From: a virus
Lineage: Duplodnaviria; Heunggongvirae; Uroviricota; Caudoviricetes
DNA length: 6,515 nucleotides
Virus record (IMG/VR): IMGVR_UViG_2529293223_000008
Reading direction: 5' to 3' (one strand)
Shown here: in pieces, positions 1 through 5,621 of the stretch
Numbering within the stretch: position 1 is the first letter of the stretch
Layout of the letters: each line of letters begins with the position of its first letter
Program-made: the position numbers and the translations under genes
The notes under the pieces: model-generated
Told to the model about the DNA's origin: nothing
Databases searched by the model: none
The model's input: only the letters and a program-made list of their open reading frames with translations

Positions 1-375
1 GGTAATCCATCCAGGCCTGTTGTTGCAGAGCTTGGCGATGATTCAGGCTGGCATTTTTTCAGCCAGAGGAATACAGATAACAGCATCACGTTCGCCGTAA
101 ACGGACAGGTAATTCCGTTAAATTACGGAAACTTTGATGCCCGCTATAAACATCGAACTGAGGGGGTACAGGATGTGCGATATGGCCATGAAATGTATTA
201 CAACCCTGGCAGCAACACCGTTTCATGGACGTTTCGCTCACCTTCGGGACACGGGCTGTCAGGGATATCGATATCGGATACCGGCCGTAACTCAGCGGAT
301 AACGTCAACGGTGTGTATTACCGACCGCTGCAAAAACTGATTAATGGCACCTGGTATAACGTAGCGAGTATTTAA
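1..375 (+). CDS. phage tail fibre protein, C-terminal fragment (5' end lies outside the window)
   Basis: Frame 1 is open from base 1 to the TAA at 373-375 (124 codons, no in-frame stop). The listed ORF 175..375 is only the internal-Met tail of this frame. The stop is 1 nt before the start of a tail-fibre-assembly gene, the usual stf-tfa arrangement. The C-terminus is rich in Gly/Ser/Asn/Tyr/Trp. Product call rests on context and composition, not on a motif I can name. Confidence 0.6.
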
Positions 376-376
376 T

Positions 377-904
377 ATGATGCACTTAAAGAACATAAAA
401 GCGGGTAACGCTAAAACGCCGGAACAGTATGAGTTAACAAAGAAGCACAGAGTCATCTGGCTTTACGCTGAAGACGGGAAAAACTGGTATGAGGAAGTGA
501 AGAACTTTCAGCCAGATACAATAAAGATTGTTTACGACGAAAATAATATTATTGTTGCCATTACCAAAGATACCTCAACGCTTAATCCTGAAGGTTTCAG
601 CGTTGTCGAAGTTCCTGATATTACCGCCAACCGACGTGCTGATGACTCCGGGAAGTGGATGTTTAAGGACGGAGCTGTGGTTAAGCGGATTTATACGGCA
701 GGCGAGCAGCAACAACAGGCCGAATCACAAAAGGCCGCGTTACTTTCCGAAGCTGAATCAGTCATCCAGCCGCTGGAACGCGCTGTCAGGCTGAATATGG
801 CAACAGACGAGGAACGCACACGACTGGAAGCATGGGAACGCTACAGTGTTCTGGTCAGCCGTGTGGACACTGCAAAACCTGAATGGCCACAAAAGCCCGG
901 GTGA
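377..904 (+). CDS. tfa: phage tail fibre assembly protein (Tfa family chaperone)
   Basis: 175 aa ORF. N-terminus [21 protein letters not shown]...[13 protein letters not shown]...FQPDT and C-terminus ...[30 protein letters not shown] follow the conserved pattern of enterobacterial Tfa proteins as I recall them (TfaE/TfaQ/TfaR, Mu U-like). Start is 1 nt after the upstream fibre gene stop. Length is typical for Tfa. Confidence 0.85.
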
Positions 905-1040: not shown

Positions 1041-1784
1041 ATGTGGTTTCCGGCAAAACTGATGCTTCCGACAGGTAATATCACCCCCATAACATGTTCA
1101 GCTATGGCCGTACATCCGTGGGATGTTGAAGCGGGGCACATTACGCCAGACGGTGCGTATTTAAGCCCCGTCAACGCAATAAACCACCTTAACAACAAAC
1201 TCCCGGGCCTGACCGAAAACAGCGATATCGCCATCATAATGGTAACAGGCAGCAATAATAACGATTTTATTCGTCAACTGTCAGCACTGGCAGACACACT
1301 CCCTTTACCCACTCTGACGCAGACGCTAAGACGCGCAAGAACACAGCTCACCCAGGCAATCACCAGAATGCAAATCCCGGCGACACCACAGAACGGACTG
1401 CCCGCTCCACAACCACTTATTGCCAGCACACTACAGAACAGCATCAGTAACCACACCGCGCTTAACGCTATGAAGGCCGAAGGGCTGAACTCTGTCGACT
1501 CACTGAAAAACGCGTTATCCGGTTTTCAGGCACAACGTCAACGGTTGCAGCAACAGATAATCGCTGAACTGGCAGGAGCAGGCGATAAAGTGGCAAAAGC
1601 ATTTGCGTTCGTGCACACCGGCGACGCCGTTTTAGCCCGCCGGGAAATGATGAAAAATATTCCGCACCCCACAGCTTCACTGACGTATGCACACCTGTTC
1701 GCAGGCGATCTTTCCGGGATGCTGAACTGGATAACGAAGGCAGAAAATGAGCCAGAACACGACAACGCCACTGCTGGCCCTTAA
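1041..1784 (+). CDS. hypothetical protein, 247 aa, first gene of a three-gene operon; function unknown
   Basis: Long ORF (track lists 846..1784). I place the start at ATG 1041 because AAGAGAGG (1026-1033) lies 7 nt upstream as a Shine-Dalgarno, and the 846 start would overlap tfa with no ribosome-binding site. ATG 1062 is a possible alternative. No catalytic or nucleotide-binding motif recognised. Ala/Leu/Gln-rich, probably helical C-terminal half. Confidence 0.6.
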   Translation: MWFPAKLMLPTGNITPITCSAMAVHPWDVEAGHITPDGAYLSPVNAINHLNNKLPGLTENSDIAIIMVTGSNNNDFIRQLSALADTLPLPTLTQTLRRARTQLTQAITRMQIPATPQNGLPAPQPLIASTLQNSISNHTALNAMKAEGLNSVDSLKNALSGFQAQRQRLQQQIIAELAGAGDKVAKAFAFVHTGDAVLARREMMKNIPHPTASLTYAHLFAGDLSGMLNWITKAENEPEHDNATAGP

Positions 1785-2313
1785 TGGTCAGATAATCCCG
1801 CTAAAACGCTTAAGTGTCAGCGTGAAGCTGACCATCAAAGACAAAGACGCTTCCGGAAAATCCTCATCAACAGCGACTTCAGAACAGGGTGTAAAAGCCA
1901 AGGAGCTGCAGATTTCCGGACTGATTCCGTTCACCCAGCCGGAAGCACTCACACGCTTATTTCGTCTGGCTGAAGCCAGAGCCGCTAACGGTGCACAACA
2001 GGTTTACCGCATCGCCAACATGGATGCTAAAGCGGTCAATATGAAGCAAGGGATTTTTTCCGGTGCCGTGGGCGCAACTCCTGAAACAGGCCTGATGGCA
2101 TGGAAAGTTGACTTCACTCTGAAAGAAAAACTCAGCAGTGCCGAAAAGGCGACAGGACGCGGCCCGGCTGGCAATCAGAGTGCTGAACAGCACGCACAGG
2201 CCGTCAAATCAGGTGGCAAAGGCGAAAAAAACGAAGAGCATGGCTGGTTCTGGAAAATGTCAGACAAACTCAATAACTGGATAGGCCCGGCAGGCAATGA
2301 AACCAATTCGTGA
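1747..2313 (+). CDS. hypothetical protein, 188 aa, Lys-rich and hydrophilic; function unknown
   Basis: ORF with GAAGG (1736-1740) 6 nt before ATG 1747. Overlaps the upstream gene by 38 nt and the downstream gene by 17 nt, consistent with translational coupling. Ser/Thr-rich N-terminus, Lys/Gly-rich middle, Trp-containing C-terminal tail (HGWFWKMSDKLNNWIGP). No recognisable motif; DKDASGKSS is not a valid Walker A. Confidence 0.6.
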   Translation: MSQNTTTPLLALNGQIIPLKRLSVSVKLTIKDKDASGKSSSTATSEQGVKAKELQISGLIPFTQPEALTRLFRLAEARAANGAQQVYRIANMDAKAVNMKQGIFSGAVGATPETGLMAWKVDFTLKEKLSSAEKATGRGPAGNQSAEQHAQAVKSGGKGEKNEEHGWFWKMSDKLNNWIGPAGNETNS

Positions 2314-3985
2314 TCTCTGCATTAACGGCAGGCGTTATCCTGTCGTGGAAGAAAACATCATGTTGCGTCTCAACGGCGCGGGAACCGGCTTTATCACCAT
2401 TAACGCCGCCGACAATACTCCCCCGCTACGCGGCAAACCCGTAGAGCTGTCCATCGGTTACAACGATCAGCCTGTAAAGTGGTTTTCGGGATATGTGGAA
2501 AGTGACAGTTGTACAGGCAGAGGGCTGCACAAGCTGATGGTGCGCGAAGCTGCTGCTATTCTGCAATACCCGCTCAACATCTCCATGCAGCATCCGACGC
2601 TGAAACAGGTCGCAGGACACATTGAAGGCAATACAGGTTTACGCATACAACTCCCGAAGGCAGGCTACACCACCACTCCGGTCCCTCATCTGACCCACAA
2701 TGGCAACGGTTATCAGCTGATGGCCATGCTTGGCCGCATATTCAGTATCCCGGATTACGTCTGGTATCCGTCGGTTGACGGCATCATCTACGCCGGAAGC
2801 TTTGCTGACTGCCGTTTTACAAAACGCCCTGCCAGATTGCCGGTCGATATCACCAGAGGTGATCACGGAGCAAATGGCTGGACAATACAGACGATTCCCA
2901 TGATGCGCCCCGGCGTGGTCATGAACGATCACCGTATAAATCAGGTACAGCTACAGGGCGACAGCATGATCATTAGCTGGAGTGATGGCCGTCAGTCGCC
3001 AGTACAACGCCAGATCGAAACCCTTTACCCCGAGATAGGCAACAAAACCCACCTTCCACGCATGGGACGCGTGATCTCACCAACTGAAAACACAACCCAG
3101 GGGGATTTGCATGATGAATTTCGCCCACGCTACGCCGTCAATGTGCAGTTGCTCGACGAGAACGGCACCCCCGATAAGAACACACCGGTATATAACGCCG
3201 TCCCCGTTCCTGTGCCAATGGCCGGCAATGAATCCGGGATATTCCAGTACCCGCCCCCAGGAACCATAGTTACACTGGCCCACGTTGACGGCAGGCCGGA
3301 TAAACCCATCATCACCGGCACTCACGCCAGCGGCCAGAGTCTGCCGGGAATAAAGCCCGGCGAACAACTACAACAGCAACGCGCAGAGGTATTCCAGCGT
3401 GTGCATACAGATGGCACATGGCAGCGTGAAACCGATCAGGTTATTCGTGAGAAATCCACCGACCGCATCATCCAGAACACAACGGAAACGCGCACCAGTA
3501 CCACTCGTAATATTACCGTAAAGGCCAACAACACCATAACGGTGCTCGGCACTCATAAGCTGATGAGCGGCCACATACAGCACATCGCAGACGGTGACTA
3601 TGCCGTAGCCGCCACGAAGAAACTGATACAGCACGCCGACAGCGCTGAACTCGACGTTACTCACCAGTGGCAAACCAGCACAGAAAGCACCACCCACAAT
3701 GTGGCGAAAACGCTGGAAGAAAAGATTGGCCGGATTAAAAAATCCGTCGCTGGCCAGATGCAACAGATCATCGCCCCGCAGGTCTGGTTTGGCAGCAATA
3801 CCATCAACACACTTAACCTCATGCTGGATCTTTGCGACACCGTTCAGCAACTGGCGCAGCTCACCGCACAACACACTCATACCAACAACGGGTCGTCACA
3901 GCCCACCAACAGCGGCAGCATAGACACGGTGGCATCAATGGCAGGCAACCTGAAAGCGAAGTACAGTACCGTGATTAAGCAGTAA
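2297..3985 (+). CDS. baseplate hub-spike-like protein (gp27/gp5- or VgrG-like architecture, inferred), 562 aa
   Basis: Long ORF. Residues about 255-345 (nt about 3059-3331) carry an OB-fold signature: RYAVNVQLLDENG...PMAGNESGIFQYPPPGTIVTLAHVDGRPDKPIITG, which parallels the conserved VgrG/gp5 block (RVKVxFxWD...WAG...PRIGxEVxVxFxxGDPDRPIITG) as I recall it. DGRPDKPIITG is at nt 3287-3319. Residues about 385-470 show Thr/Val-rich short beta-repeats (NITVKANNTITVLGTH...) like a spike beta-helix. The N-terminal 250 aa loosely fit a hub (gpD/gp27-like) pattern. Start could instead be ATG 2360 (Met22), which has GGAAG upstream. The ORF call is firm; the family call is from memory. Confidence 0.7.
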   Translation: MKPIRDLCINGRRYPVVEENIMLRLNGAGTGFITINAADNTPPLRGKPVELSIGYNDQPVKWFSGYVESDSCTGRGLHKLMVREAAAILQYPLNISMQHPTLKQVAGHIEGNTGLRIQLPKAGYTTTPVPHLTHNGNGYQLMAMLGRIFSIPDYVWYPSVDGIIYAGSFADCRFTKRPARLPVDITRGDHGANGWTIQTIPMMRPGVVMNDHRINQVQLQGDSMIISWSDGRQSPVQRQIETLYPEIGNKTHLPRMGRVISPTENTTQGDLHDEFRPRYAVNVQLLDENGTPDKNTPVYNAVPVPVPMAGNESGIFQYPPPGTIVTLAHVDGRPDKPIITGTHASGQSLPGIKPGEQLQQQRAEVFQRVHTDGTWQRETDQVIREKSTDRIIQNTTETRTSTTRNITVKANNTITVLGTHKLMSGHIQHIADGDYAVAATKKLIQHADSAELDVTHQWQTSTESTTHNVAKTLEEKIGRIKKSVAGQMQQIIAPQVWFGSNTINTLNLMLDLCDTVQQLAQLTAQHTHTNNGSSQPTNSGSIDTVASMAGNLKAKYSTVIKQ

Positions 3986-4117
3986 GTTTACAGATGAGAA
4001 GAGGTGCACAGGCAGCCCGGTTTACCACTCAAGAATCATGCCACAAAATACAGACAAATAAGCCTTTCGTGAAATTATTCATATATCAATAAATTTCATT
4101 CATCGAACCAGACGAAA

Positions 4118-4133
4118 GCCCGTCGCGACGGGC
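4118..4133. other. perfect 16-nt GC-rich palindrome GCCCGTCGCGACGGGC (hairpin; possible minus-strand terminator or protein-binding site)
   Basis: Seen in sequence: fully self-complementary. On the minus strand it is followed by a moderately U-rich tract (TTTCGTCTGGTT); on the plus strand by ATTCCCCC. Sits in the gap between the operon and IS150. Confidence 0.35.
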
Positions 4134-4172
4134 ATTCCCCCAGAAAAACACCCCCCACCAGACGCGCTGTAT

Positions 4173-4175
4173 CGC
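4173..4175. repeat. target-site duplication, left copy (CGC)
   Basis: CGC immediately outside the left IS150 end, identical to 5619-5621 outside the right end. A 3 bp duplication is expected for IS3-family elements. Confidence 0.8.
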
Positions 4176-4199
4176 TGTACTGCACCCATTTTGTTGGAC
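4176..4199 (+). repeat. IS150 left terminal inverted repeat
   Basis: TGTACTGCACCCATTTTGTTGGAC matches the reverse complement of the right end (TGTACTGACCCCAAAAAGTTGGAC) at about 18 of 24 positions. Confidence 0.85.
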
Positions 4200-4222
4200 G
4201 ATGAAATGGAATAGCCCCTGAT

Positions 4223-4744
4223 ATGTCAAAGCCAAAATACCCTTTTGAAAAGCGCCTTGAAGTAGTGAATCACTACTTCACTACTGATGATGGTTACAGG
4301 ATCATCTCGGCACGTTTTGGTGTCCCCCGAACCCAGGTCAGGACATGGGTTGCCCTCTATGAAAAACATAGAGAAAAAGGCTTAATTCCCAAACCTAAAG
4401 GTGTTAGTGCTGATCCAGAGTTGCGTATTAAGGTCGTGAAAGCTGTGATCGAGCAGCACATGTCCCTTAATCAGGCTGCTGCTCACTTTATGCTTGCTGG
4501 TAGTGGTTCTGTAGCCAGGTGGCTGAAGGTTTATGAAGAGCGCGGAGAAGCTGGTTTACGCGCGCTCAAGATTGGCACCAAAAGAAACATTGCAATATCA
4601 GTTGATCCAGAAAAAGCGGCATCAGCATTGGAGCTGTCAAAAGACCGACGCATTGAGGATCTTGAAAGGCAAGTTCGATTTCTTGAAACGCGGCTTGTGT
4701 ATCTAAAAAAGCTGAAAGCCTTAGCTCATCCCACGAAAAAGTGA
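4223..4744 (+). CDS. insJ: IS150 OrfA (InsJ), helix-turn-helix DNA-binding transposase component
   Basis: 173 aa ORF, MSKPKYPFEKRLEVVNHYFTTDDGYRIISARFGVPRTQVRTWVALYEK..., recognised as IS150 InsJ. Contains the frameshift window near its 3' end. Confidence 0.95.
   Translation: MSKPKYPFEKRLEVVNHYFTTDDGYRIISARFGVPRTQVRTWVALYEKHREKGLIPKPKGVSADPELRIKVVKAVIEQHMSLNQAAAHFMLAGSGSVARWLKVYEERGEAGLRALKIGTKRNIAISVDPEKAASALELSKDRRIEDLERQVRFLETRLVYLKKLKALAHPTKK
4705..4711 (+). other. programmed -1 ribosomal frameshift heptamer A-AAA-AAG (gives the InsJK fusion transposase)
   Basis: In the insJ frame the codons are CTA-AAA-AAG. A -1 slip enters the insK frame, which is open through the GTG at 4741 to the stop at 5592. 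The IS3-family frameshift mechanism is established knowledge. Confidence 0.85.
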
Positions 4745-5592
4745 AAGTACTCAACGAGCTAAGGCAGTTTTATCCTCTTGATGAGCTTCTCAGGGCTGCG
4801 GAGATACCGCGCAGTACGTTTTATTACCATCTAAAGGCTCTCAGCAAGCCTGACAAGTATGCGGACGTTAAAAAGCGTATTGGTGAGATTTATCATGAGA
4901 ATAGAGGCCGATACGGATACCGTAGGGTAACGCTGTCTCTTCATCGAGAAGGGAAACAGATTAACCATAAAGCTGTTCAGCGCCTGATGGGAATCCTCTC
5001 ACTTAAGGCAGCGATTAAGGTCAAGCGATACCGCTCTTACAGAGGAGAGGTAGGGCAAACCGCCCCCAATGTTCTCCAAAGAGATTTCAAGGCTACGCGG
5101 CCAAACGAGAAGTGGGTTACCGATGTTACTGAATTTGCAGTCAATGGGCGCAAGCTGTATTTGTCTCCAGTAATAGATCTCTTCAACAACGAAGTTATTT
5201 CTTACAGCCTTTCGGAAAGACCAGTGATGAACATGGTCGAGAATATGCTCGATCAGGCATTCAAAAAGCTTAATCCTCACGAGCATCCTGTTCTGCACTC
5301 TGACCAGGGATGGCAGTATCGTATGAGAAGATATCAAAATATCCTTAAAGAACATGGTATTAAACAAAGCATGTCCAGAAAAGGCAATTGTCTGGATAAT
5401 GCTGTGGTGGAGTGTTTCTTTGGAACCTTAAAATCGGAGTGTTTTTATCTTGATGAGTTCAGTAATATAAGCGAACTGAAGGATGCTGTTACGGAATATA
5501 TTGAATACTACAACAGCAGAAGAATTAGCCTGAAATTAAAAGGTCTGACTCCAATTGAATATCGGAATCAGACCTATATGCCTCGTGTTTAA
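4741..5592 (+). CDS. insK: IS150 OrfB (InsK), DDE transposase catalytic domain; made mainly as an OrfAB fusion by -1 frameshifting
   Basis: 283 aa [34 protein letters not shown]...[18 protein letters not shown], recognised as IS150 InsK. The track's initiating Met is a GTG overlapping the insJ stop, so the true N-terminus is supplied by the fusion. Confidence 0.95.
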
Positions 5593-5594
5593 CT

Positions 5595-5618
5595 GTCCAA
5601 CTTTTTGGGGTCAGTACA
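5595..5618 (-). repeat. IS150 right terminal inverted repeat
   Basis: Reverse complement reads TGTACTGACCCCAAAAAGTTGGAC, pairing with the left repeat. The element ends in CA. Confidence 0.85.
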
Positions 5619-5621
5619 CGC
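5619..5621. repeat. target-site duplication, right copy (CGC)
   Basis: CGC immediately outside the right IS150 end, matching 4173-4175. Confidence 0.8.

Follow-up and report, generated by a model that had tools for sequence, protein, structure and literature searches.

The orf34 gene and its family

The stretch of DNA analysed here (the window, 6,515 nucleotides of the IMG/VR virus record IMGVR_UViG_2529293223_000008, Caudoviricetes) carries at positions 1747-2313 an open reading frame (ORF) for a protein of 188 amino acids (aa) that is homologous to orf34 of bacteriophage HP1. In the baseplate, its product probably forms the ring by which tail tube and hub-spike are joined. The gene and the parts of its predicted product are as follows.

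1747..2313, + strand: HP1 orf34-family baseplate protein, 188 aa (PF25759, PHROG 1398, identity to HP2 orf34, synteny and fold searches)
1774..2136, + strand: predicted tube-fold domain, residues 10-130 (predicted local distance difference test score, pLDDT, 92-98 outside the hairpin tip)
1837..1890, + strand: predicted beta-hairpin tip, residues 31-48 (low pLDDT in the monomer; most conserved motif of the family)
2152..2241, + strand: Gly/Ala/Lys/Glu-rich low-complexity linker, residues 136-165 (predicted disordered, pLDDT 35-59)
2245..2283, + strand: short C-terminal helix WFWKMSDKLNNWI, residues 167-179 (proposed docking helix)

The ORF begins with ATG, and a Shine-Dalgarno-like GAAGG motif lies 9-13 nucleotides (nt) 5' of it. 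As described in the initial annotation of this DNA, the frame overlaps both of its neighbours, the upstream ORF by 38 nt (stop codon at 1782-1784) and the downstream 562-aa ORF by 17 nt (ATG at 2297). The start codons of the 188-aa and the 562-aa ORF line up with residue 1 of their HP2 orthologues. The junctions between orf33, orf34 and orf35 overlap or abut throughout the phages compared, with overlaps of 4-35 nt for orf33/orf34 and 0-4 nt for orf34/orf35 in HP2, K139, phiO18P and Yersinia phage 324. These overlaps suggest that the 188-aa ORF is translationally coupled with both neighbours. The composition noted initially was also recovered: Ser and Thr account for 14 of the 50 N-terminal residues, the whole protein is rich in Ala (12.2%), Gly (9.6%) and Lys (9.6%) with an isoelectric point (pI) of 9.7, and three of the four Trp residues lie within WFWKMSDKLNNWIGP (residues 167-181). 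Its reported lack of an enzymatic motif was confirmed, the sole Pfam match being PF25759 and the NCBIfam and PADLOC searches returning no match.

A remote homology search, which the initial annotation had proposed, placed the protein in PF25759 ('Bacteriophage HP1 ORF34 baseplate complex protein') at 166.4 bits (cut-off 27; E = 6.7e-49), with residues 10-173 aligned to model positions 3-169 of 180, and in PHROG 1398 (E = 3.5e-55), a group without an assigned function. All 57 aligned relatives also match PF25759. HP2 orf34 is 38% identical over the full length, aligned from residue 1, and the copy in Escherichia coli RMDEC332, named 'baseplate complex protein' in RefSeq, differs by one residue. 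By tblastn the protein was found in 75 phage records, all of them HP1-type Peduoviridae and relatives, including HP1, HP2, K139, Kappa, phiO18P, F108, ESSI-2, phi3, Pseudoalteromonas C5a and ACA1. When 1.84 billion cluster representatives were scanned in full with HMMER, 270 relatives came up at E<=1e-3, nearly all of 150-200 aa; with so many matching representatives, the ORF is not a random reading frame. The 188-aa gene is a known, catalogued member of an HP1-type tail structural family and not an orphan. The initial annotation had set its own proposals against the finding of clear homology to a known tail structural protein with conserved synteny, and this is what was found: a named tail/baseplate family (PF25759), a tail-tube fold and conserved synteny.

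The direct orthologue is HP1/HP2 orf34 (UniProt P51738), which has an equal size, the same place between orf33 and orf35, and shares with the 188-aa protein the linker and the C-terminal '...L(N/D)xWIG' ending. The window protein differs from it in belonging to an enterobacterial lineage, whose closest copies in isolated phages are less than 50% identical, and in the Trp residues at positions 167, 169 and 178, which most of the family lacks. In the literature searched, no paper mentions PF25759, P51738 or PHROG 1398, and no experimental study of any PF25759 member was found.

The legacy names of orf34 homologues conflict with one another ('DNA-binding protein', 'nucleoid DNA-binding protein', 'adenine glycosylase'), and two of the misnamed homologues sit at 5995-6534 and 5986-6531 of their phage loci. 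None of these names is backed by any family or fold search, and their inconsistency points to annotation drift.

Predicted structure and conservation

Searches of the PDB by sequence, with the single sequence or with a 57-sequence profile, gave no meaningful match for the 188-aa protein, and fold comparison alone was productive. An AlphaFold2 (AF2) monomer model built with a 57-sequence alignment, the structure prediction of the protein alone that the initial annotation had called for, yielded a confident core with tail-tube topology (pLDDT >90 at residues 10-30 and 49-130). This core consists of long paired strands (residues 20-30 and 49-61), between which runs the poorly ordered hairpin tip, a flanking helix (65-76) and three more strands. 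Two fold searches converged on a single class of proteins, with tube-like hub rings ranked first. The matches comprised monocin FtbK, the PVC tube-domain protein, the tube initiators of Pam3, A-1(L) and Bas63, XM1 gp11 and Mu N; Foldseek independently placed baseplate chains of E217 and Pa193, Pam3 gp17, Bas63 and Milano gp25 at the top. Phage XM1 differs in its gene layout and was used for fold comparison alone. The N-terminal tail-tube-fold domain that defines the tube-initiator or centrepiece class is thus predicted in the 188-aa protein.

Conservation was scored on a set of 133 sequences, each representing one 50%-identity cluster. It peaks in the hairpin tip, at the motif D34-x-S-G-x-x-S-x-T ... 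G48-x-K50-x-K52, with values of 0.80-1.00 at D34, S36, G37, S40, T42, G48, K50 and K52. In tube proteins the equivalent hairpin forms the inner barrel and the ring-to-ring contacts, and the modelled tube fold suggests that the orf34 hairpin may have the same role. The core residues F104, W119, F123, L125, E127, S130 and E133 are also among the most conserved of the family.

Beyond residue 135 nothing follows but the disordered linker and a single helix about 12 residues long. The linker varies in length and sequence within the family, with gap fractions of up to 0.88. The secondary structure assignment by DSSP places the helix at residues 167-178 of the AF2 model, at low confidence (pLDDT about 50-58). 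Its hydrophobic positions 168, 171/172, 175 and 179 are kept across the family with moderate conservation, and the residues most common in the family at positions 167, 169 and 178 are G, E and A. The Trp-containing tail that had been singled out as unusual is therefore present as described, but it is the form that a moderately conserved C-terminal helix takes in this lineage.

The neighbouring genes and the tail module

The two genes that overlap orf34 are homologues of HP1 orf33 and orf35.

1041..1784, + strand: HP1 orf33 homologue, 247 aa (PHROG 1677, E = 2e-41; BLASTP to HP2 orf33)
2297..3985, + strand: HP1 orf35 homologue, 562 aa, predicted fused hub and central spike (PHROG 2258 'baseplate protein', E = 1e-195)

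The 562-aa protein is 34% identical to HP2 orf35 from end to end, starting at residue 1. Residues 302-342 match part of the Phage_base_V OB domain, which was found in three of five orthologues, and one orthologue also matches gpV Apex. Near the C-terminus, H526-T527-H528 are invariant and resemble the metal-binding apex motif of P2 gpV-type spikes. VgrG, Pvc8 and Afp8 match the protein weakly but consistently in the region from the OB domain to the beta-helix. HP1 orf35 has been described as a fusion of homologues of P2 gpD (hub) and gpV (spike) (PMC10612066 Table S1). In hhalign comparisons with P2 gpD and gpV, for which the templates were single sequences, the 562-aa protein gave no significant match. 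Because of the partial Pfam, TIGR and PDB matches and the literature, we regard the 562-aa protein as a hub-plus-spike fusion with a VgrG-like architecture. The initial view of the downstream gene as spike-like was thus borne out by the Pfam, PHROG and VgrG-type matches and by the published table (PMC10612066). The RefSeq name of this protein is 'type VI secretion system Vgr family protein', despite its location in a phage tail operon.

The orf33 homologue is kept throughout HP1-type phages. It matches no Pfam family, and its mediocre AF2 model had no informative match among solved structures. Mass spectrometry of ACA1 virions detected the homologue gp46, and the orf33 product is a probable virion protein. 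The annotated starts of this gene differ: the RefSeq-equivalent start lies at 1104 (226 aa), and the ORF delimited mechanically begins at 846. Translation most likely starts at the ATG at 1041, for a product of 247 aa. This codon is preceded by a GAGAGG/GAGGT Shine-Dalgarno motif, it corresponds to residue 1 in the BLASTP alignment to HP2 orf33 (E = 6e-17, 26% identity), and the 247-aa form has been called in many genomes.

[quoted passage not shown] The order DUF2590, baseplate J, gpI-like, fibre, Tfa, orf33, orf34, orf35 is identical in the E. coli prophage, HP2, K139, phiO18P and Yersinia phage 324; phi3 has a matching order of tail genes, with orf33 not annotated. The synteny of orf34 is kept in at least five phage genera. 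Pfam searches of the prophage tail genes identified gpR, gpS (weakly), the DUF2586 sheath, the HP1_Orf24 major tube protein, the chaperone, the tape measure, the DUF2590 protein in the position of gpW/gp25, gpJ and gpI, and no Pfam-detectable match to gpU, gpD, gpV or gpX was found among them. Since these other tail roles are filled, and orf35 provides both hub and spike, orf33 to orf35 alone are left for the hub complex. A ring between hub and tube is still needed, and orf34, as the only remaining tube-fold candidate found, is the gene to which this role would fall.

Proposed role of the orf34 product

We consider it likely that the orf34 product is a tube-initiator or baseplate-centrepiece ring joining the tail tube to the hub-spike. 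The N-terminal tail-tube-fold domains (residues 10-130) of six copies would assemble into a ring that sits on the pseudo-hexameric top of the trimeric hub-spike formed by the 562-aa product, so that the 3-fold hub is matched to the 6-fold tube. Polymerisation of the major tube protein around the tape measure, and hence that of the sheath, would start from this ring as a template. The role would equal that of the proteins known as tube initiator, baseplate centrepiece or 'ripcord', such as P2 gpU, pyocin PA0626, Milano gp25, Pa193 gp38/39 and Pvc7. The flexible linker of 30 residues and the short C-terminal helix probably extend outward, where the DUF2590 protein (the sheath initiator), a gpJ/gpI-type wedge or the orf33 protein may serve as the docking site of the helix. 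Such a tether would hold the wedges to the central hub until contraction extracts the assembly of tube, hub and spike. The start-stop overlaps of orf33, orf34 and orf35 would fit a coupled synthesis of co-assembling parts, at about six orf34 products to three hub-spikes. The initial annotation had suggested an adaptor, chaperone or cap for the spike-like protein; the adaptor comes close to our best reading, a tube-fold ring on the hub-spike, whereas the chaperone and the cap found no support.

This proposal draws on the set of centrepiece, 'ripcord' and tube-initiator proteins that includes pyocin R2 PA0626, P2 gpU (PF06995), Milano gp25, Pa193 gp38/gp39, the E217 homologues, Pam3 gp17, Pvc7/Afp7, XM1 gp11 and Mu N. 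Centrepiece proteins combine a tube domain with a wedge-binding C-terminal region, which departs with the tube on contraction (PMC10811340). The tube-like proteins gp37 and gp38 of Pa193 bind the sheath initiator through C-termini that point outward (PMC11456595), and the C-terminal extension proposed for orf34 from its model would reach outward in a similar way. The gene lies immediately 5' of the hub gene and overlaps it, and in the phage records P2 gpU/gpD and relatives are similarly placed. A table based on HHpred labels the HP1 orf34 homologue 'gpU?' (PMC10612066).

Several observations weigh against this assignment. The label just mentioned is marked as uncertain by its own source (PMC10612066), and the sequence of orf34 has no detectable homology to P2 gpU. 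PF06995 was matched by none of the 57 orf34 relatives even at E<=10; P2 gpU itself scored E = 3.7e-44 against this family. With hhalign, the orf34 family scored a probability of 0.2% against P2 gpU and again 0.2% against an 11-sequence gpU alignment. That alignment was made from phage records, as the scan of viral contigs yielded only gpU copies of at least 98% identity, which are useless for a profile. One low-scoring orf34-gpU alignment had a topologically sensible register and was not significant. In ACA1, the orf34 homologue gp47 was undetected in virion mass spectrometry, whereas the orf33, gpD and gpV homologues were detected; the sensitivity of this run was low, as even gpJ was represented by only two spectra. 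The helical-bundle and LysM domains of typical centrepieces are absent from orf34 in both the Pfam searches and the AF2 model, its C-terminal part being cut down to a disordered tether and one short helix, and this helix was modelled at low confidence. Some members of the centrepiece class, such as Pa193 gp38/39 (170-188 aa), likewise lack a helical bundle and LysM.

A more far-reaching version of the proposal would make the HP1-type baseplate centre unlike that of any solved contractile tail, with a bare orf34 tube ring, a tether and a docking helix, and with the 'glue' function taken over by orf33. We regard this as conceivable but rather doubtful. The wedge-joining 'glue' is normally made up of the centrepiece helical bundle and a LysM protein. 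A scan of tail-module proteins detected no LysM domain, and no solved HP1-type baseplate structure turned up in searches of the PDB and the literature.

Alternative explanations

A tube-fold protein could also act elsewhere in the tail, for instance as an additional tube ring at the distal end ('baseplate tube' or tube-B), as a tail terminator or as a neck ring. Such a position is improbable for orf34, since the terminator and completion roles are already held by the gpR-like and gpS-like genes adjoining the head genes, and the orf34 gene is attached to the hub-spike gene, away from the sheath, tube and neck genes. Moreover, its best fold matches are rings that contact the hub, and a second ring would leave the bridge between tube and hub unaccounted for, orf34 being the sole extra tube-fold candidate found. 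The overlap with the spike gene and the missing gp47 in the ACA1 virions would both suit an assembly factor, a chaperone or scaffold for the trimerisation of orf35 or the recruitment of the tape measure that is absent from the mature virion. Against this, the confident tail-tube fold is that of a building block and of no known chaperone, the tail module already has the chaperone Phage_TAC_10, and six copies of a Lys-rich protein of about 20 kDa are easily missed in a tryptic run of low depth in which gpJ gave two spectra; we therefore give the assembly factor only a small chance. The orf34 product was also examined as the major tube protein, and this candidate was rejected: a separate gene next to the DUF2586 sheath gene matches PF10772 (E = 2e-54), and hhalign of the orf34 family against this HP1_Orf24-family protein gave a probability of 0.1%. 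The prophage thus keeps a distinct tube gene beside the sheath gene, orf34 has no sequence similarity to the product of that gene, and it differs from major tube proteins and Hcp (HP1 Orf24 PF10772, P2 gpFII, T4 gp19, Hcp of type VI secretion systems, T6SS) by an extra C-terminal extension of 55 residues.

The older GenBank names would make orf34 a DNA-binding or nucleoid-associated protein, and indeed many cluster members and gp33 of phage phi3 bear such names and the protein is basic, as its pI and its Lys content show. This function is nonetheless highly implausible. No DNA-binding Pfam or NCBIfam family was matched even at E<=10, the fold is that of a tail tube and not HU or H-NS-like, all fold matches are tail proteins, the gene lies within a late tail operon, and the family names are inconsistent to the point that one homologue is called an adenine glycosylase. 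We find it equally hard to credit a T6SS-style accessory of VgrG, be it an adaptor, an effector or an immunity protein, to which the RefSeq name of the 562-aa neighbour and weak, sub-threshold matches to TIGR01646 and TIGR03361 might point. The VgrG models scored 23-30 bits against cut-offs of 122-186, none of orf33, orf34 and orf35 had a PADLOC match, the surrounding genes make up a complete HP1-type head, tail and lysis module devoid of T6SS core genes, and isolated phages that form plaques carry this three-gene block as well. The effector or immunity-type partner considered in the initial annotation finds no footing here, with neither PADLOC matches nor a T6SS or toxin context. The ring between tail tube and hub-spike remains the reading that we prefer for the orf34 product.

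The surrounding prophage

The other features of the window lie upstream of orf33 and downstream of orf35.

1..375, + strand: 3' end of a tail-fibre gene of the HP1 orf31 / P2 gpH type (colinear with the RMDEC332 coding sequence for a 'phage tail-collar fiber domain-containing protein')
377..904, + strand: tail-fibre assembly protein, 175 aa (Pfam Caudo_TAP, E = 7e-37; PHROG 136, E = 1e-79)
4114-4137: GC-rich palindrome (GCCCGTCGCGACGGGC core), terminator-like on the minus strand, about 130 nt 3' of the hub-spike stop
4176-5618: complete insertion sequence IS150 (ORFs 4223-4744 and 4741-5592), between the hub-spike gene and the hok/gef gene
6372-6515, + strand: coding sequence for a Hok/Gef family toxin, a 47-codon ORF (annotation of the matching E. 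coli strain)

Compared with six complete E. coli genomes, the window shows 98.5-98.9% identity apart from an insertion of 1.4 kb. Judged by these matches, the window is the right end of an HP1-type prophage in E. coli or Shigella, with IS150 inserted downstream of the tail genes. The element is flanked by a 3-bp CGC target duplication (4173-4175 and 5619-5621), the six genomes have an empty site, and the exact insertion is absent from every complete E. coli genome in the collection. The stretch of RMDEC332 that the window matches forms the right end of a prophage next to the tRNA Leu-Cys-Gly / pgsA locus. The 24 kb around it comprise a full head, lysis and tail module, with the genes Ogr, portal, terminase, scaffold, P2-family capsid, gpR-like, DUF2586 sheath, tube, holin and lysozyme, followed by chaperone, tape measure, DUF2590, baseplate J, gpI-like, fibre, Tfa and orf33-orf34-orf35. 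No integrase, repressor or replication gene was found in the 20 kb of RMDEC332 examined, and the element resembles a defective prophage in which the late region is retained entire and the tail genes are intact. To the left of ogr and portal, the first 3100 nt examined contain IS600, a fragment of a plasmid-partition gene, and genes for a helix-turn-helix protein and a PIN-domain protein.

A scan of the window for promoters and terminators gave nothing above shuffled controls, and Rfam searches of the whole window at gathering thresholds found neither Sok nor other RNA families. The annotated terminator of K139 occupies a place equivalent to that of the palindrome, after orf39.

Implications for HP1-type tails

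The orf34 gene itself is an already catalogued, ordinary component of phage baseplates, and the finding leaves the current understanding of contractile injection systems unchallenged. Its value lies in replacing misleading legacy names by a structurally grounded role and in completing the parts list of the HP1-type contractile tail. The hub complex in this list is very small, consisting of a tube-like ring, a fused hub-spike and the orf33 product. The one point of mild novelty is the hub complex of HP1-type tails, which seems unusually minimal and devoid of LysM.

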